Shown piece by piece: positions 1 to 12,185 of a DNA stretch of 36,824 bases; position 1 is the first letter of the stretch, and each line of letters starts with the position of its first letter. Position numbers and translations under genes: made by a program. The notes under the pieces are model-generated. The model saw nothing but the letters and a program-made list of their open reading frames with translations, had not been told where the DNA came from and searched no databases. Source of the stretch: a virus (Duplodnaviria; Heunggongvirae; Uroviricota; Caudoviricetes); IMG/VR virus record IMGVR_UViG_2585427781_000006, one strand, 5' to 3'.

Positions 1-1017
1 TCACACTTCTAGCGTTGCGAGGGGGTTGAATCTCAGAGCCGTCTCAAGATGATCGGGTGCTAAATGGGCATAGCGCATAGTCATTTTTATATCGTGATGT
101 CCGAGGATTTTTTGCAAAGCAAGGATATTTCCACCCGACATCATGAAGTGCGCCGCAAACGTATGGCGCAGAACGTGTGTCAGTTGACCGCGAGGGAGCA
201 CGATAGACGTTTTTTCCATCACGGATAAAAATTGAAAATAGCAGTCTGTAAAGAAATTGAACCCATCAAGCGCCATGATCTCTTCGTAAAGCTCTTTACT
301 GATAGGGATGCTTCTGTTTTTCTTCCCCTTCGTTCTTACAAAGGTAATTCGGTATTTGGTCACTTGCGAGCGGGTAAGATTTATTGCTTCTCGCCAGCGT
401 GCGCCTGTGCTTAGGCATATCTTGACTACCAGTGCCAGAATTGGGTCCTGACGTTTGCAATCAGCCAGCAGTTCAACAATCTGCTCATGGGTAAGCCATG
501 CCATCTCTTTTTCTGCGATGGTGAATTTTCGCATGTTCTCCAGTGGGTTCGGATACGACCATTCGCCCAGGCGGGATAGTTCGCTAAAAACACTACTTAG
601 ATAGCTTTGCTCCAGGTTAATGGTGACCGGGCTTGCTCCTTTCTTCCATTTCTCGCTGAAGTAGATCTCACCTGTCAGGCGTTTATCTCGATAGTGGGCA
701 AACATTTTAGAGGTTAGATCAGTTGCAAGGGGATTGCCCAGAGCGTCAACCATCAACAGCAGTTTGTCATAGACATGCTGCCCAGCTGTCAGAGATTTAC
801 CATGTAGTTTGAACCATAGCTCAATCACGTCTTTCAATGTCCGACGATCCACTGATTCGCCCAGCCAGGGCTTTGCTTCGGTTTCTTCCATCGTGTGACG
901 CTCAAAAGCCAGAGCTTCGCCTTTGGTGGCGAATTGTTTACGCACACGACGTCCACTACGTCCGGCGGGGTAACATTCGCAAAGCCATTTTCCTGTGGTG
1001 AGTTTTCGTACTGCCAT
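1..1017 (-). CDS. int: Phage tyrosine integrase (P2/186 Int family)
   Basis: Tyrosine recombinase catalytic motifs (LRHTFAAHF ... HHDIKMTMRYAHL) in the 1..1095 ORF. Start placed at internal ATG 1017 (MAVRKLTTGKW) because a GGAGGG Shine-Dalgarno lies 8 nt upstream; the track start at 1095 is the alternative. Confidence 0.9.
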   Translation of the reverse strand: MAVRKLTTGKWLCECYPAGRSGRRVRKQFATKGEALAFERHTMEETEAKPWLGESVDRRTLKDVIELWFKLHGKSLTAGQHVYDKLLLMVDALGNPLATDLTSKMFAHYRDKRLTGEIYFSEKWKKGASPVTINLEQSYLSSVFSELSRLGEWSYPNPLENMRKFTIAEKEMAWLTHEQIVELLADCKRQDPILALVVKICLSTGARWREAINLTRSQVTKYRITFVRTKGKKNRSIPISKELYEEIMALDGFNFFTDCYFQFLSVMEKTSIVLPRGQLTHVLRHTFAAHFMMSGGNILALQKILGHHDIKMTMRYAHLAPDHLETALRFNPLATLEV

Positions 1018-1203
1018 AAAAAATGCCCTCCAGTAGAGAGCATTTTTACTGTATGTATAACCAGTGTCAATGTATGAAATCCTGCGACCATACATCTCAC
1101 TGAAGCCATAATGAAGTTAGCTATTTTTTGCTATGTGAGTATGTGACTTTTGCGGTTAGCCTGCGGCTCATTGTTATATTAGGCGCAGGTATAAAAGCAA
1201 AAT

Positions 1204-1395
1204 TTATCGCGAGTTTTTAGTACAGATTTTTTTTGATTTACTAATAGTTCCATCATTGCAAACGAACTTTCCATCGGAGGTACAGTGAGAGACACCTCCC
1301 TTTTTCCCAGAACAAGGATAATTTTTAGCATAGGTAGTTAGTGGGTTTAATAACAAAGAGCATGATAAAACCACAAAAAATACCTTACCAAGCAT
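1204..1395 (-). CDS. Small secreted cysteine-rich peptide (moron, unknown function)
   Basis: 63 aa with N-terminal hydrophobic signal-like segment ([11 protein letters not shown]) and a mature part with 5 Cys. Strong RBS (GGGAGG 5 nt upstream of ATG). AT-rich relative to flanks. Sits between the CI stop and int on the same strand. Confidence 0.5.
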
Positions 1396-1410
1396 AGTTT
1401 CCTCCCGGTA

Positions 1411-1980
1411 TTACCTAACGTACTTAATTGTTAAACTTATAATTTTCCCAATTATTTCAACATCTTCTATCTTGCACTCGAAGGCTCTGTTTCCACCCTC
1501 GACGAAGATTCTTCCACCGGGTAAACGAGTAATGTCACGGATCGTTATTTCGCCATCAATACTTATTACCCATTTACCATCACGTATATCATCAAATTCC
1601 TTATCACAAATAAATTCAGAATTATTATCTGTGATTACAAAAAGATTCTTGAATGCCGACGGTAGAAATTCTCTATCGAAAATATAAAAACCGTCTTCAC
1701 ACAAGGCCCCATCAGATAATACATATTTAGCAACTTCCATAGTATTTGTATTACCTGAAGTTTGCTTTGAACCATGCCCGGTTGTGAGCCAATTAAGCGA
1801 GGTGCCTGTTTCAAGGGCGCACTGGATTACCCATTCTGCTGGGAATGAGTCACGCATGTAGCGTGTGGCGAGTGTACTTTTAGAGATTCCTAAATGATCG
1901 CACAACGCCTGTCGAGTCTTGAATCCATAAGCTTCTACCATGCGCTCTATAGCGCCTCGTCCGCCTTTCTCCAAATTCAT
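1411..1980 (-). CDS. cI: CI-type immunity repressor (phage 186 CI-like)
   Basis: N-terminal HTH (TRQALCDHLGISKSTLATRYMRD), length about 190 aa and position next to int match 186 CI. ATG 1980 chosen over the GTG at 1986 because GGAG lies 7 nt upstream. Confidence 0.85.
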   Translation of the reverse strand: MNLEKGGRGAIERMVEAYGFKTRQALCDHLGISKSTLATRYMRDSFPAEWVIQCALETGTSLNWLTTGHGSKQTSGNTNTMEVAKYVLSDGALCEDGFYIFDREFLPSAFKNLFVITDNNSEFICDKEFDDIRDGKWVISIDGEITIRDITRLPGGRIFVEGGNRAFECKIEDVEIIGKIISLTIKYVR

Positions 1981-4764: not shown

Positions 4765-7175
4765 GTCATGACGATATGAACAATTGCAGCGGCTTTAACG
4801 AGGCCGCCGCAGCATTTTCATGGAACGGCTCGAAAAAGGCCATTAACCCTTATCTGGACCCGGCGGAAGTTGCGCCGGAGTCTGCACTTTCAAACCTGAT
4901 CACTCTGTACGCTGCCGATAACGAGCAGGAACAACTGCGCCGCGAGGCACTGAGTGAGCAGGTCTGGGAGCGTTATTTCTTTAATGAATCCCGTGATCCT
5001 GTCCAGCGCGAAATGGAGCAGGATAAGCTCATTAGCCGGGCAAAGCTGGCGCATGAGCAGCAGCGTTTTAATCCGGACATGGTCATTCTGGCGGACGTAA
5101 ACGCCCAGCCTTCCCATATCAGCAAGCCGCTGATGCAACGTATTGAATACTTCAGCAGCCTGGGCAGGCCAAAGGCTTATTCCCGCTATTTGCGTGAGAC
5201 GATTAAGCCATGTCTGGAGCGACTGGATTGTGTACGTGACAGTCAGCTATCTGTTTCTTTCCGTTTTATGGCAAGCCATCAAGGGCTGGAGGGTCTGCTG
5301 ATCCTGCCTGAAATGAGCCAGGATCAGGTGAAACGCCTGTCCACCCTGGTAGCAGCGCATATGAGCATGTGTCTTGAGGACGCTTGTGGTGATTTGTATG
5401 CCACCGATGACGTTAAGCCAGAAGAAATCCGCAAGACATGGGAAAAGGTGGCAGCGGAAACCCTGCGTCTGGATGTTATCCCGCCTGCGTTTGAGAAACT
5501 TCGTCGGAAAAGAAACCGCCGCAAACCAGTGCCCTATGAACTCATCCCGGGTTCGCTGGCGCGTATGTTGTGTGCCGACTGGTGGTATCGGAAATTATGG
5601 AAGATGCGTTGCGAATGGCGGGGAGAGCAGTTGCGTGCTGTCTGCCTGGTCAGCAAAAAAGCATCCCCCTATGTCAGCTATGAAGCCGTGATGCATAAAC
5701 GTGAGCAGCGCCGTAAGTCGTTGGAGTTTTTTCGTTCTCATGAACTGGTGAACGAAGACGGCGACACGCTGGATATGGAAGATGTGGTAAACGCCAGCAG
5801 CAGCAACCCGGCGCATCGCCGCAATGAGATGATGGCCTGTGTTAAAGGTCTGGAGCTTATCGCGGAAATGCGCAGTGACTGTGCCGTTTTCTACACTATC
5901 ACCTGTCCGTCGCGTTTCCATTCCACGCTCAATAACGGCAGACCAAACCCGACCTGGACAAACGCGACGGTAAGACAAAGTAGCGATTATCTGGTCGGCA
6001 TGTTTGCTGCATTTCGTAAGGCTATGCATAAAGCCGAGTTGCGCTGGTATGGCGTGCGGGTAGCTGAGCCGCATCATGACGGTACTGTGCACTGGCATCT
6101 CATGTGTTTCATGCGTAAAAAAGACCGCCGCGCCATCACTGCATTACTGCGTAAGTTTGCCATCCGTGAAGACCGCGAGGAGCTGGGCAATAACACGGGA
6201 CCACGCTTTAAGTCTGAGCTGATAAACCCGCGCAAAGGTACGCCAACAAGCTATATCGCGAAATACATCAGTAAGAACATTGACGGGCGTGGTCTGGCTG
6301 GGGAGATCAGCAAGGAAACGGGTAAATCCCTGCGTGATAACGCTGAATACGTTAATGCCTGGGCGTCTCTGCATCGTGTTCAGCAATTCCGCTTCTTTGG
6401 CATTCCGGGGCGTCAGGCTTACCGTGAACTGCGATTGCTGGCTGGTCAGGCGGCAAGGCAACAGGGTGACAAAAAAGCAGGTGCGCCGGTACTGGATAAC
6501 CCGCGCCTTGATGCCATTCTGGCTGCTGCTGATGCTGGTTGTTTTGCCACCTATATCATGAAGCAGGGTGGCGTACTGGTTCCCCGTAAATATCACCTCA
6601 TCAGAACCGCTTATGAAATCAACGAAGAGCCAACCGCTTATGGCGATCACGGTATTCGTATTTATGGCATCTGGTCACCCATTGCAGAGGGCAAGATCTG
6701 CACTCATGCGGTGAAGTGGAAAATGGTTCGTAAGGCCGTTGACGTTCAGGAGGCGGCTGCCGACCAGGGCGCTTGCGCCCCTTGGACTCGTGGCAATAAC
6801 TGTCCCCTTGCTGAAAATTTGTACCAACAAGGGAAAGACAAATCAGCTGATGGGGATACCAGAACGGACATTACCCGCATGGATGACAAGGAGTTGCACG
6901 ATTACCTGCACAGTATGAGCAAAAAAGAGCGCCGGGACCTGGCAGCAAGGTTACGCCTGGTTAAACCGAAACGGCGTAAAGACTACAAACAGCGAATTAC
7001 ATACCATCAGCGACTGCAGCTCGTCTATGAGCTGAAGTCCAGAGGATTTGATGGTAGCGAGAAAGAGGTCGATTTACTCCTTCGCGGCGGCAGTATTCCG
7101 TCAGGAGCAGGCTTGCGTATCTTCTATCGGAACCAGCGTTTGTGGGAAGATGATAAGTGGCGGAACCTGTATTAA
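4761..7175 (+). CDS. A: Replication initiation endonuclease gpA (rolling-circle initiator)
   Basis: About 805 aa, following the early genes as in P2/186 gene A. Start at ATG 4761 overlaps the dam stop (ATGA). Confidence 0.88.
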
Positions 7176-7328: not shown

Positions 7329-7517
7329 ATGCAGGACTATTTTTTGGAGTCTTTGAAGCTCCAGCGCATTGATTTTTTTCTTAAGCTTGTAGCGGCTAGT
7401 GAGTGTAGTGATGAAGAGAAGGGGCTGGCTCTGCAGTGGGTTTCTGAATTGACTGATGAACTCATGGCAAAGATCAGAACCCACGAATACAACCGCTCAA
7501 TGGATGTCATCAGTTGA
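7329..7517 (+). CDS. Small protein of the SOS-controlled module (Tum N-terminal-like position)
   Basis: 62 aa from ATG 7329 with AGGAGG RBS 4 nt upstream, downstream of the LexA box. Confidence 0.5.
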   Translation: MQDYFLESLKLQRIDFFLKLVAASECSDEEKGLALQWVSELTDELMAKIRTHEYNRSMDVIS

Positions 7518-7527
7518 GGTGACTTTT

Positions 7528-7761
7528 ATGCGCATTGAAATAATGATCGATAAAGAGCAGAAGATTAGCCAGTCTACCCTGGACGCCCTTGAATCCGAGC
7601 TTTACCGCAATCTGCGCCCCCTGTATCCAAAAACGGTAATTCGTATCCGTAAAGGTAGCTCTAACGGTGTGGAACTGACCGGACTGCAACTGGATGAAGA
7701 AAGAAAACAAGTGATGAAAATTATGCAGAAGGTGTGGGAAGACGACAGCTGGCTGCATTAA
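7528..7761 (+). CDS. DinI-family protein (Tum antirepressor C-terminal-like)
   Basis: 77 aa from ATG 7528 (MRIEIMIDKEQ ... VWEDDSWL), collinear with DinI as recalled. GAGGTGA RBS upstream. Confidence 0.8.
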   Translation: MRIEIMIDKEQKISQSTLDALESELYRNLRPLYPKTVIRIRKGSSNGVELTGLQLDEERKQVMKIMQKVWEDDSWLH

Positions 7762-7770
7762 GAAACGTTG

Positions 7771-7798
7771 CCCCCAAGAGGATTTATCCTGTTGGGGG
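7771..7798 (+). terminator. Hairpin downstream of the dinI-like gene (possible terminator)
   Basis: cccccaagaggat-tt-atcctgttggggg forms a long stem-loop. No clear U-tract. Confidence 0.35.
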
Positions 7799-8249
7799 GA
7801 GTTTGGGCAACGAGTGAAATGAGGTGTAAGGTGGGCGGTCATTTTGATAAGTGATCGTCCACTTTGTGTCAGAACCTGATGTTTGTTGTACATTCGGACG
7901 AATAGGCGGCGTTGTTTGCTTTAAAAATAAAACAGGAACACTTTGAGAAAGTGAACAGGTGTATTTATTTGTTGCTGATGAATGAGAGTAACTCTAATTT
8001 GGATAATTAGCTTGATAATAGGTCAGACGAAAATAATATTCCAGCACACTTTTGGTCGCAACAGGCATTAGTTAATTTTAAGTGATAAATTTTTATCCAT
8101 AAATTAACACTAGTGTGTCATCTAGCGAAACCGAATCGCTTTAACTCATAACTTGAAGTTGAATCAGTGGGGTAGCAGTAGGCATGCCGGAACTGATAAA
8201 CTGTGCAGAAGGCTAAACATTCATTCACTCGTGAGATAGTAGCTAAATT

Positions 8250-9116
8250 ATGCAAAGAATTATTCCTGATAAAAATTGGTGGGAAAAAGAGCGTATTAAT
8301 CGTAAAGCATCATCAATATGCCCATATGCTAGTTCATACAGATGTCCTCGATACTATCAGAGTGTAGTTTTGCTCTCAAGCATCAATGTGATAGCTGGTA
8401 TGGCAACTAGGAAAGAAAAAGAGTTGGGCGAATTTTGGGAAAGAACCACTTTCTCATCTTTATGTGATGAAGAAGTCCCTACAGTTACTACAAAAGAATA
8501 TGGCGGCCTTGCATCAGTTAGTAATTTTTGCCCAGAAATATCATTTAGATATTTACACTACTACGCCGATTATATGTGTAAATATGTTGATGAGATAGAT
8601 CAGGACACTGGCAGGCGTATTGCGGAAAAAGATAATTTAGAAAATGATTGGAAATATACATGGATGTCAGTCAATCCTAAATTTTATTTAGATTGCGATG
8701 TTTTTGAAACTGTCAAAAATTTCAATGAAGAATTGGCTAGTGATTACTTAAAAAGATTGCACCCAAATATCGTTCAGCAAATAGATAGAATGAATAATTG
8801 CTTGGATAATAATGATCCGGCAGGTGCACTGCACGCAGCCTCTAATATTTTAGAAACTATGGCTAAGGAAATCACTCAAAACCCGAATGTGGCAAATGAG
8901 TCATTGGGTGGTTTTTTTAAACAGTTCGAAAAAATGTCAAAATTACCTAAGAATCTTATTGATGCTGTTAAAGATATTTATGATTTACGCAACAAATTAC
9001 CTACTGCTGGACACGGAAGCTTGAACAAGCCTGAATTGACTATGGTAGAAGCTATAACTATTGCGGCAATGACAAAGGCGATTTTAGAAATTGAATATCG
9101 AAGCAAAGCCATCTAA
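8250..9116 (+). CDS. Hypothetical accessory protein (AT-rich cargo gene)
   Basis: 288 aa ORF in a strongly AT-rich island. N-terminal Cys pairs (CPYASSYRCPRY). No catalytic motif recognised with confidence. Confidence 0.6.
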   Translation: MQRIIPDKNWWEKERINRKASSICPYASSYRCPRYYQSVVLLSSINVIAGMATRKEKELGEFWERTTFSSLCDEEVPTVTTKEYGGLASVSNFCPEISFRYLHYYADYMCKYVDEIDQDTGRRIAEKDNLENDWKYTWMSVNPKFYLDCDVFETVKNFNEELASDYLKRLHPNIVQQIDRMNNCLDNNDPAGALHAASNILETMAKEITQNPNVANESLGGFFKQFEKMSKLPKNLIDAVKDIYDLRNKLPTAGHGSLNKPELTMVEAITIAAMTKAILEIEYRSKAI

Positions 9117-9365: not shown

Positions 9366-10019
9366 TCATTTCGATGATTGATCCAGATGTGTATATAACC
9401 ATTGAAAGAGTTTTCTAATTTTTGTGATAGTATCTTTTAAATAATTTAAGGAGATTATTATATTATTTTCATTGTTTAATGAAAGAGTAGGTGTTTTATC
9501 AATGATATTTTTTAAGGCTACAGCTGTGCTCATTTTTTTAATGTCTCCATTAGCATGAACTATGCAATTCCTTACTTTGTTAAACTCTGTCATGAATTGC
9601 CACTCTTGTGACAGGCCAAAGTTTATATCCATTAATTTTGTTAAATATCTTTTTGCTTTGTGGATGCCATCACCATTAAAATCGGTTACTGATATATTGG
9701 TGTTTACAATCCTTTGACATATATTGCAATAGTCGTTTAGGTTGTGCTCTAAGCATGAGTATAAAGATACCAAAGCAGATTTATTAAAAATATTTGGTTG
9801 TATGTTAACTAAGAAATCATATTGCTCTGAATAATAGTCTTCTAAGTAATTAATATAATCGTCAGGAGCATTCTTTTTTTCATCTTCATATGCTTTTTTT
9901 AATTCCGATAAGTCAACTCTGTTTTGGCCGCCTGCTCCTAGGATATATTTTTCGAAATCATCAATCTGCGCTTCAAGTGAATATCTTGATAGCTGTGCGA
10001 AAAGTTTGTATTTACTCAT
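9366..10019 (-). CDS. Hypothetical accessory protein with HEPN-like R-N-x3-H motif (candidate Abi-type RNase)
   Basis: 217 aa ORF in the AT-rich island. Motif KVRNCIVHANGD matches the canonical HEPN R-[N]-x3-H signature in spacing and context. Confidence 0.6.
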   Translation of the reverse strand: MSKYKLFAQLSRYSLEAQIDDFEKYILGAGGQNRVDLSELKKAYEDEKKNAPDDYINYLEDYYSEQYDFLVNIQPNIFNKSALVSLYSCLEHNLNDYCNICQRIVNTNISVTDFNGDGIHKAKRYLTKLMDINFGLSQEWQFMTEFNKVRNCIVHANGDIKKMSTAVALKNIIDKTPTLSLNNENNIIISLNYLKDTITKIRKLFQWLYTHLDQSSK

Positions 10020-10533: not shown

Positions 10534-11448
10534 ATGCCATACCAATTGGTAGAGCTTAGCCCCGTAGCTAACGATCTTGAACAGTTAGGAACCAAAGAGA
10601 AGTTTTGGTTCTATTTCTCCGATGACACTGTAAATTTGCAGTTGTTTAAGTACTCTAGGCCAGGTACTGGCGAGCATTGGTCTGAAAAGTGTGCTGCTGA
10701 GTTATGTCATTTGCTTAACATTCCACATGCTAGCTATGATTTGGCGCGATACAATGGTCGATTCGGTGTGGTGACTCAGAATATCATTCCATCTGGTTTC
10801 CGGATGGTAATGGGAAATGAAGTGCTTCACAGTTCGACATTCGATTATCCAGGGCCTTTACAAGCCGGGGAAAAGCCGGTAAGGGTCAGAGAACACACTG
10901 TCACAAGGGTATTGGGTTGTTTAGATAGGGAATCTATCAAGCCTCCTCCGAGTGTATATGATCTAACCGGGCTAAATGCAGCAGATGTATTTTGTGGATT
11001 TTTGATGCTCGATGCACTTGTGAGTAATCAAGATCGCCATCATGAAAATTGGGCGATCATGCTTAACAATGAAACTGGTGAGCAGTTTTTGTGTCCAACA
11101 TACGATCATGCCGCTAGTTTAGGAAGGGAGATGTTAGATGATGAGCGTAACGAACGGCTTAATACTAAAGATAAAAATCGACAAATCCCATGTTTTGTAA
11201 GAAAAGCTCGCTCTGAGCTATTCAAAGCAAAAACTGATAAAAAGCCCTTGCTGACCGTTGAAGCATTTCAACATGCAGTTGAAGGGAGAGTTGCCGCTCG
11301 CGACCATTGGTTAGGTAAGTTGAGCGTTTTAACAGAAGATTCCATTACAGATGTGTTTAACCAAGTGCCTTCATCGTGTATATCCGACAGTGCACGTAGA
11401 TTTGCAACGTTAATGGTAATGGAAAATCGCAGAAGGTTACTAGAATGA
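10534..11448 (+). CDS. HipA-family Ser/Thr kinase, short form (kinase core only)
   Basis: 304 aa. Gly-rich loop-like LGTKEKFWF near the N-terminus (compare HipA VAGAQEKT), catalytic loop SNQDRHHENWA (compare HipA TDGHAKNFS) and CPTYDHAAS (compare HipA TPFYDIIS). Lacks the HipA N-terminal domain. Confidence 0.7.
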   Translation: MPYQLVELSPVANDLEQLGTKEKFWFYFSDDTVNLQLFKYSRPGTGEHWSEKCAAELCHLLNIPHASYDLARYNGRFGVVTQNIIPSGFRMVMGNEVLHSSTFDYPGPLQAGEKPVRVREHTVTRVLGCLDRESIKPPPSVYDLTGLNAADVFCGFLMLDALVSNQDRHHENWAIMLNNETGEQFLCPTYDHAASLGREMLDDERNERLNTKDKNRQIPCFVRKARSELFKAKTDKKPLLTVEAFQHAVEGRVAARDHWLGKLSVLTEDSITDVFNQVPSSCISDSARRFATLMVMENRRRLLE

Positions 11449-12185
11449 CTAATACAAACTCCGTTTACGTCGCATGGCAGGCACCAGATACCAGAGACTG
11501 GCATGTTGTTGGTAACTTGCAAGAGCGCAAATCGGGGTATGTTTTCAGGTATACCAAAGGTGCTCTTAAATCTACTAAATTTACAAAGTTTAGCGGCATG
11601 AGTGATGTTCGTGAAACTTATGTTTCGGAAGAATTGTTTCCTCTTTTTAAAAATCGCCTTTTATCACCGAGACGTCCAGAGTATCCGAGTTTCATTAAAT
11701 GGCTTGGATTTGAAGAAGATAAGGTAAATCCTATCGATATTCTTGCTCGCTCGGGAGGCTTACGAAGCACTGATCAGCTGCAGATTTTCAAAAAAATTGA
11801 TGTTGATTCTGATGGTAACTTTGAGCATTTTTTCTTCTTACATGGACTTGGTTACTTAAATAGCTTAGCTAATGCTCGTGTATCTGAATTGAAACCGGGG
11901 CAAATTTTGCGTCTTTGCTTGGATCTTCAAAATGAATACGATGGGGATGCTGTTGTCGTTCGTGCAGATAAACCAGCTGAAATCGTTGGTTACTGCCCTA
12001 GGTATTTAAGTAATGATATCAAGAAGATGTTATTGGATGATCCAAAATCAATCACTTTAACGGTCGAAAAGATTAGCGATGATGCTCCTCATAACTATCG
12101 GTTATTATGTAAATTATCAGGAGTACTAAGCCAAGCCTGTCAATCGACGCTGATTCCTCAGGATGAGTTTGAACCTATTGAGTAA
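11445..12185 (+). CDS. HIRAN-domain protein with HipA-N-terminal-like (HipS-like) region
   Basis: 246 aa, start overlapping the kinase stop (ATGA). C-terminal LRLCLDLQNEYDGDAVVVRADKPAEIVGYCPRYLSNDIKKMLLD fits the HIRAN signature. N-terminal half shows the pattern of the HipA N-domain (LFKNRLLSPRRP ... PIDILARSGG versus HipA FFDNLLPDSP ... PFDLLSEIGRD). Confidence 0.6.
   Translation: MTNTNSVYVAWQAPDTRDWHVVGNLQERKSGYVFRYTKGALKSTKFTKFSGMSDVRETYVSEELFPLFKNRLLSPRRPEYPSFIKWLGFEEDKVNPIDILARSGGLRSTDQLQIFKKIDVDSDGNFEHFFFLHGLGYLNSLANARVSELKPGQILRLCLDLQNEYDGDAVVVRADKPAEIVGYCPRYLSNDIKKMLLDDPKSITLTVEKISDDAPHNYRLLCKLSGVLSQACQSTLIPQDEFEPIE

Follow-up and report, generated by a model that had tools for sequence, protein, structure and literature searches.

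A YdcA-family gene for a small, predicted exported cysteine-rich protein behind the repressor gene of a 186-like Escherichia coli prophage

What does a 186-like prophage carry between its repressor gene cI and its integrase gene int, and what might the product do for the lysogen? The question is raised by a short open reading frame (ORF) at positions 1204-1395 of IMG/VR virus record IMGVR_UViG_2585427781_000006, a stretch of 36,824 nucleotides analysed here at its full length (the window). The window is a complete 186-like (Peduoviridae) prophage inserted between the host genes rcdA and ybjL, and it is 99.9-100% identical to prophages of E. coli BL21(DE3), REL606, E. coli C and many isolates. 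A first-pass annotation, made from the nucleotide sequence, had described the ORF as a gene for a secreted cysteine-rich peptide in the lysogenic operon. The best explanation of the whole, held with moderate confidence, is that the gene is a member of the YdcA family, placed as cargo at the cI-int junction of this prophage and encoding a conserved, probably exported module. The gene, the family and the cargo slot are all of known kinds, and the gene is already annotated in RefSeq.

The coding sequence is as follows.

1204 to 1395, minus strand: ydcA-family coding sequence, 63 codons plus a TAA stop codon, product identical to WP_001321204.1

The ORF product is identical to RefSeq WP_001321204.1, which bears the product name 'YdcA family protein'. 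The NCBIfam model NF007463 is matched at 116.1 bits against a cut-off of 93 (E 4e-34, residues 5-63 of 63 covered), followed by PHROG 6000, a family without an assigned function (E 5e-34), NF007462 (E 6e-19) and, weakly, the lpg1681 family of NCBIfam (E 0.11). The Pfam family PF27300 is precomputed on the cluster representative, which is 97% identical to the ORF product; the Pfam copy that was scanned held no model for the product because PF27300 is newer. The 90% identity cluster of the product has 355 members on at least 1000 contigs, relatives are encoded on at least 535 IMG/VR contigs, and 650 of the 5426 complete E. coli genomes carry the region, among them those of B/BL21/REL606 and C. 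The YdcA family profile matches 446 clusters (50% identity), spread over Alpha-, Beta- and Gammaproteobacteria. The UniRef cluster name 'Conjugal transfer protein' could be traced back to no conjugation gene neighbourhood. A blastn search of the cI-int interval against 50,697 phage records gave no match, and the family is detectable in phages at the protein level only. A literature search on the accession WP_001321204 returned no paper and no expression data, and no paper was found on the prophage copy of ydcA.

Is the ORF a real gene? Its length is insignificant by itself, as an ORF of at least 63 amino acids (aa) occurs in 11% of shuffles of the 393-nt cI-int interval; the gene is taken as real because of its conservation. 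Among 78 IMG/VR copies, 16 codons are variable, 14 of them synonymously and 2 conservatively, the two amino-acid changes being V/I within the signal peptide and K/R at the first mature residue. For the mature part, close pairs have a ratio of nonsynonymous to synonymous substitution rates (dN/dS) of 0.02-0.05, and in distant pairs its dN stays at 0.1-0.26 with dS saturated, while the pairwise ratios of the signal peptide indicate near-neutral evolution apart from hydrophobicity. The mature part is under strong purifying selection. The 63-codon minus-strand ORF was thus correctly placed in the first-pass annotation, and family scores, conservation and dN/dS support a genuine gene for a small, predicted exported cysteine-rich protein; the lack of conservation in relatives that would have spoken against it was not found, with 446 matching clusters and synonymous variation dominant.

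The product is divided into two parts.

1327 to 1395, minus strand: signal peptide, residues 1-23, predicted cleavage after TYA; includes C12, which is not conserved
1207 to 1326, minus strand: mature domain of 40 aa, 4.3 kDa, isoelectric point 9.6, net charge +7, four conserved cysteines

The N-terminus consists of K4, a 12-residue hydrophobic core (grand average of hydropathy 2.9) and NPLTTYA, with T at -3 and A at -1, and has the predicted n-, h- and c-regions of a Sec signal peptide. In the family alignments the Ala at -1 is invariant or nearly so and the remaining N-terminus varies freely; the domain begins at residue 20-39 in 167 of the 199 YdcA family members. The signal-peptide-like appearance noted earlier therefore holds up, as K4, the hydrophobic core, TYA and the near-invariant Ala all agree with it. 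A bacterial lipoprotein was considered and rejected: VLSC at residues 9-12 has L at -2 with only 7 hydrophobic residues before it, and the lipobox-candidate cysteine, C12, lacks conservation in the orthologues.

The mature part is rich in lysine. Its cysteines C28, C38, C46 and C58 are all invariant in two alignments (A1 and the mature-domain alignment A3) and invariant or nearly so across the family alignments generally, as are P27, K32, G33, G34, F44, D48, G49, S52, S54 and K55, and the product fits the family motif PCSGxKGG-x3-C-x5-7-F-x-C-x-DG-x2-S-x-SK-x2-C. The mature part had been expected to have about 40 residues and five cysteines; the length is right, but there are four cysteines, the fifth (C12) lying in the signal peptide. 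The AlphaFold2 model shows a short beta-hairpin, with a predicted local distance difference test score (pLDDT) of 88-90 over residues 31-50. The positive net charge is a property of the family, with a mean of +4 and 198 of 205 domains positive. Very probably, the protein leaves the cytoplasm through Sec, loses its signal peptide by cleavage after TYA, forms two disulfides on oxidation, stays in the periplasm and is translated with CI in every lysogen. Periplasmic retention is assumed because it has been proposed for K-12 YdcA and seen for Dis2, two relatives that are described below.

Does the gene belong to the common gene set of these phages, or is it carried as cargo? In phage 186 the junction is empty, cI and int overlapping. 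In other relatives the junction holds PD-Lambda-1 in place of ydcA (vB_EcoM-813R9; L007 3091-4767), a 349-aa hypothetical protein (Klebsiella phage 4LV2017) or the four ORFs orf4 to orf1 (HP1). K139 has the order cI-orf2-glo-int behind the mapped promoter PL, with glo annotated as a periplasmic protein involved in phage exclusion. E. coli JA0257 (L091 1142-2473) has the order cI-ydcA-KAP NTPase (PDC-S20)-int, with 13 nt between ydcA and the start of the NTPase gene. Recognised anti-phage genes are among the cargo that relatives carry here. A cI-int defence hotspot has been described for K139-like phages (Rousset et al. 2022, PMC9122126).

The family gene itself recurs at this junction. In all 80 near-identical IMG/VR loci, 15 nt separate cI from ydcA and ~186-188 nt separate ydcA from int, with CI alleles that are 85-100% identical, and the order cI-ydcA-int is also found in prophages of Yersinia alsatica, aldovae and nurmii, where CI is only ~34% and Int ~47% identical. 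Haemophilus phages HP2/S2 encode a family member of 60 aa that lacks annotation; its ATG shares bases with the cI stop codon (TAATG), and it is followed by orf1(S), which encodes a secreted protein with an oligonucleotide/oligosaccharide-binding (OB) fold (tRNA_anti-like), and then by int; at a Moraxella locus the ydcA-like gene is likewise paired with a secreted OB-fold (tRNA_anti-like) protein. In five Betaproteobacteria the family gene lies 0-2 genes behind a helix-turn-helix (HTH) repressor gene, and at least one of these loci is P2-like. Other accessory positions were seen in phages of Moraxella, Acinetobacter and Pseudomonas and on plasmids of Acinetobacter and Rhizobium. The context on the Acinetobacter plasmid was uninformative, and matches on E. 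coli 'plasmids' were set aside as chromosomal fragments carrying rcdA and ybjJ. ydcA is cargo, tending to sit directly behind the repressor gene. The comparison with 186 relatives, which had been proposed as a check, gives the same picture, as ydcA is absent in phage 186 and the slot is otherwise variable.

When would the gene be expressed? The surroundings of the gene are as follows.

1 to 1017, minus strand: int (tyrosine integrase), at the prophage end adjoining host rcdA
1018 to 1203, minus strand: ydcA-int spacer of 186 nt, proximal ~95 nt (int leader) conserved with the Yersinia prophages
1396 to 1410, minus strand: cI-ydcA spacer of 15 nt, with the Shine-Dalgarno (SD) sequence GGGAGG at 1401-1406, 5 nt before the ATG
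1411 to 1980, minus strand: cI repressor (Phage_CI_repr + Phage_CI_C), immediately upstream in the same direction

The window starts at the int stop codon and the 186-type immunity region follows, with apl/cox-like, cII, fil and dhr-like genes on the plus strand after cI. The cI-ydcA spacer with its SD is conserved in three further loci (L090, L011, L091), and the distal half of the ydcA-int spacer is confined to the E. coli lineage. Neither a promoter-like nor a terminator-like site was detected in the stretch from cI to the ORF, and an Rfam scan of positions 900-2200 gave no match. No promoter of its own was detected upstream of ydcA, the one minus-strand match (1391-1362) falling inside the ORF. 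The first hairpin after the ydcA stop codon (1135-1200) was rejected, as it is insignificant (z -1.7) and has no U-run. Since ydcA overlaps or couples closely with cI and with downstream cargo in the relatives, it is predicted from the layout to ride on the cI transcript as part of a polycistronic lysogenic unit. The protein would be made along with CI from the lysogenic transcript of pL (and pE) and would be present in every lysogen. What had been read from the letters here stands: the strong ribosome-binding site is GGGAGG at a 5-nt spacing from the ATG, the gene lies on the same strand, bounded by the cI stop (1411) on one side and by the int start (1017) on the other, the patch is AT-rich (GC 35% in the ORF against 51% in the window), and the 15-nt gap, the SD of its own and the lack of an intervening promoter or terminator support a placement for production with CI in lysogens.

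Whether the unit extends to int is a separate question, which is raised by elements in the spacer.

1019 to 1047, minus strand: 13-bp hairpin, intrinsic-terminator-like, flanked by A5 and U6; folding free energy (dG) -14.5 kcal/mol, z -5.6
1042 to 1070, minus strand: promoter-like TTGACA-17-AAAAAT upstream of int, a consensus match only
1070 to 1095: inverted repeat ATGTATG...CATACAT, overlapping the promoter-like site

The 186-nt spacer folds far better than its shuffles (z -4.8). The hairpin at 1019-1047 is the only terminator-like element and lies 157 nt downstream of ydcA; its 3' arm includes the int SD (GGAGG) and its end is 1 nt before the int ATG. In the Yersinia loci a comparable hairpin, built of another sequence, stands in this position before int, and these loci share the promoter-like TTGAC element, with the repeat there reading ATGTTTG...CAAACAT, changed on both arms. 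The hairpin may stop or attenuate the pL transcript ahead of int. There is about an even chance that it ends or attenuates the lysogenic transcript and masks the int ribosome-binding site, so that the unit would be cI-ydcA with int controlled separately, and int may have a leader of its own. The 'cI-int operon' of the first-pass annotation is right in strand and order, but uncertain as an operon, given that a terminator-like hairpin hiding the int SD precedes int.

What is the module used for elsewhere? In multidomain family members the YdcA module directly follows the signal peptide, and the fusion partners are SNase, PLDc_2, Endonuclease_NS (four proteins) and a weak HNH-like match, which are four kinds of secreted nuclease (P0114, P0171, P0175, P0195, P0197, P0225, P0210). 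Apart from weak PBCV_basic_adap matches, nucleases are the only recognisable partners. Tandem modules also occur, with three copies in P0079 and two in P0080-P0083. Separately, in Betaproteobacteria proteins of ~100 aa, a second small, basic, cysteine-rich domain, CxCx5-6C[TA]GP[RK]GGxYC...GxKxY, was observed after the YdcA module; it occupies the C-terminal 30-40 residues (P0056, P0057, P0060, P0062, P0123, P0199) and gives the weak PBCV_basic_adap matches (E 1e-4 to 6e-3).

In type VI secretion system (T6SS) clusters of 12-14 enterobacterial species, a same-strand YdcA paralogue is embedded between TssE and VasL, in the order TssG, TssE, a ~156-aa protein, YdcA, variable cargo and VasL (ImpA_N). 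The loci concerned are L029, L045-L048, L051-L053, L058-L061, L071, L076, L078, L079, L081 and L089 (around position 5000). Genes for T5orf172/MUG113 or a NERD-UvrD helicase are often inserted beside this paralogue. The family is also found at housekeeping-type chromosomal loci, one of which is ydcA of E. coli K-12. K-12 YdcA has been described as periplasmic, with a signal sequence and of unknown function; deletion of ydcA makes E. coli W sensitive to 300 mM 3-hydroxypropionate, and the gene is reported to be induced at pH 5 under YdcI (PMC7642389).

The only solved homologue is Dis2 of Legionella pneumophila (Lpg0823; PDB 7MUC/7MUD, chain AN of 7MUC). With the family profile, the top PDB match is Dis2 (E 1.9e-4; 5e-3 once the signal peptide is left off), which is also the Foldseek top match of the model (probability 0.94); hhalign against a Dis2 orthologue gave 84% (E 8e-6), and the Dis2 orthologue P0228 carries PF27300. 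Dis2 is probably homologous to the ORF product at the domain level. Dis2 itself (7MUC chain AN; P0228, P0229) appears to be a tandem duplication of the YdcA-type domain. In the published structures its two lobes are held by five disulfides, and it is a stoichiometric subunit of the Dot/Icm type IVB secretion system (T4BSS). There it occupies a place on the outer-membrane cap, turned towards the outer membrane and in contact with DotC, DotD and DotK. The system assembles without it, and the papers call it Legionellales-specific and without structural relatives. Taken together, it is a robust conclusion that the module is small, exported, polycationic and disulfide-stapled, and is used free-standing, attached to nucleases or as part of envelope-spanning machines.

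What could such a module do in a lysogen? Tentatively, and by analogy, the protein may act as a lysogenic-conversion factor in the envelope, its polycationic module binding a polyanion, most plausibly DNA, and hindering the entry of foreign DNA. The nuclease fusions and the OB-fold partner make DNA the first candidate for this polyanion. The proposed binding site would be the periplasmic face of the outer membrane, and those hindered would be superinfecting phage and possibly conjugative or transforming DNA. The conserved net positive charge, the nuclease partners, the pairing with OB-fold proteins and the position of Dis2 on a periplasmic surface facing the outer membrane are consistent with this role, which is likened to that of K139 Glo, an unrelated periplasmic protein, as a functional analogue. 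More doubtful is the general form of the proposal, by which the YdcA/Dis2-type module would be an unrecognised extracytoplasmic mini-domain for binding DNA or other polyanions, placed behind their repressors by several phage lineages and intercepting incoming DNA. As for the lysogenic-conversion moron proposed at first, the gene is indeed cargo placed with cI, but no sign of an exported effector, toxin or signalling peptide was seen.

Several points weigh against this role. Dis2 is a structural subunit at the periphery that lies away from the translocation channel, and the effects of its loss are subtle, a position and effects that fit docking to protein or membrane better than DNA binding. 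The T6SS paralogues and K-12 ydcA, with its acid and 3-hydroxypropionate phenotypes, are not obviously tied to DNA entry, and the nuclease fusions could equally mean an anchoring domain. PADLOC-DB 2.0 has 0 families matching the ORF product at E <= 0.01. The ORF and the 3' half of cI are equally AT-rich, so that composition does not mark the ORF as a separate acquisition, and ydcA is fixed behind cI while the neighbouring cargo varies, so that it may serve the lysogeny module of the phage itself.

Among the other readings, the one that survives best, although unlikely, is that the protein is a docking subunit for an envelope machine, altering or shielding a phage receptor or injection site, a T6SS or a type IV secretion system (T4SS) without touching DNA. 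The homology to Dis2, indicated by profile, Foldseek and hhalign matches and by PF27300 on the orthologue, favours it, together with the contacts of Dis2 at the outer-membrane cap and the paralogues between TssE and VasL in T6SS operons. However, E. coli B and C have no Dot/Icm system, and no T4BSS gene was present among the features examined in the window and its flanks. Dis2 moreover has two lobes and five disulfides against the single lobe and four cysteines here, and docking leaves unexplained that the only recognisable catalytic fusion partners are nucleases.

Somewhat less likely again is a factor for host fitness or stress, by which the prophage copy would repeat the periplasmic role of chromosomal ydcA in acid and organic-acid tolerance, with no exclusion. 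The sensitivity of the deletion mutant to 3-hydroxypropionate and the induction at pH 5 under YdcI (PMC7642389) point in this direction, and chromosomal YdcA is 58% identical with the same motif. However, the strains already have the chromosomal copy and the phenotype data are sparse, and the recurrence of the gene right behind phage repressors in unrelated hosts argues for a phage-related role.

The release of a small effector, toxin or signalling peptide from the cell, as suggested in the first-pass annotation, is very improbable. The product is a small cysteine-rich precursor with a signal peptide and is prophage-encoded, as such a peptide might be, but it matches no toxin, bacteriocin or pheromone family in Pfam, NCBIfam and PHROGs, the sole Pfam match at E <= 1 being spurious (E 0.068). 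No dedicated exporter or secretion genes were noticed adjoining it, the neighbours being cI and int, and a Sec signal alone takes a protein only as far as the periplasm. In addition, the family occurs widely, in non-pathogens, within T6SS operons and as N-terminal modules of larger enzymes, and the solved homologue is a periplasmic structural subunit. The suggestion is thus left without support, and the product most likely stays in the periplasm. Lastly, a functionless or untranslated hitch-hiking ORF, for which the insignificant length and the absence of expression data in the literature could be cited, is effectively refuted by the conservation pattern, that is by the dN/dS of the mature part, the 14 synonymous changes among 16 variable codons, the match of the family profile to 446 clusters across Proteobacteria and the (nearly) invariant residues in the family alignments, along with the strong SD.

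The favoured reading, a YdcA-family cargo gene for a predicted exported module, concerns about 1 in 8 complete E. coli genomes, BL21(DE3), REL606 and E. coli C among them, and the product is predicted to be made probably whenever the prophage repressor is made. The analysis joins four things: the orphan ydcA, Legionella Dis2, an ORF of T6SS clusters and the N-terminal module of secreted nucleases. If the entry of DNA is blocked, a 40-residue periplasmic protein would join the exclusion mechanisms and give a functional handle on the family; if the interception proposal is true, this would be a new, very small, single-protein mechanism of entry exclusion against superinfection, perhaps also against conjugation or transformation. 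If exclusion is not true, ydcA is an ordinary uncharacterised cargo gene. The link between Dis2 and YdcA, the nuclease fusions, the T6SS paralogues, the HP2/S2 gene and the int-leader hairpin are testable leads, not findings.

Some further features were observed in this prophage and its relatives. In the GpA-GpQ hotspot, a PDC-M03 A+B pair, a HipA-like kinase and a HIRAN protein, is encoded at 10534-12185 on the plus strand (PADLOC E 1e-121, 3e-93); in the same hotspot, an ORF at 9366-10019 on the minus strand has a weak RTasHEPN match, and three further ORFs at 7510-9116 match no family. In strain 1297KP (L090 1-233) a Panacea-domain gene lies beyond int. In BL21(DE3) (NC_012971 875136-876303; L002) the prophage is decayed just right of the immunity region, with cII truncated and fused to a truncated replication gene, and with cI, ydcA and int intact; the retron St85 effector gene lies near the decayed region.

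How does the locus compare with known systems? Like phage morons, ydcA is an extra AT-rich gene between conserved genes, absent from phage 186 and placed for expression in the lysogen; unlike them, it has no detected promoter of its own, and the terminator-like hairpin is 157 nt downstream. With the defence hotspots of P2-like prophages it shares the slot, which in relatives holds PD-Lambda-1 or the PDC-S20 KAP NTPase; a YdcA-family gene is not mentioned in the hotspot paper PMC13586616, the one searched for ydcA. K139 Glo resembles the product in having a signal peptide and in the place of its gene, which lies between cI and int in a Peduoviridae phage and follows the lysogenic promoter PL, but Glo has 137 aa and an exclusion phenotype on record, and homology between the two was rejected (hhalign probability 0.2%).

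Among the named relatives, K-12 YdcA (57 aa; PRK10040; PF27300) belongs to the same family, is 58% identical to the prophage protein and shares its build of a signal peptide and a ~35-aa domain, PCSGxKGG[VI]SHC...GKFVCNDG[ST]xSxSKKxC, with four cysteines. The K-12 gene is chromosomal, between trg and cybB and next to rydC, whereas the prophage copy lies behind cI, and the two genes have ~77% nucleotide identity over only 86 bp. Compared with Legionella Dis2, the ORF product has a single lobe and four cysteines and is encoded in a host without Dot/Icm, but both proteins are small, exported and pinned by disulfides.

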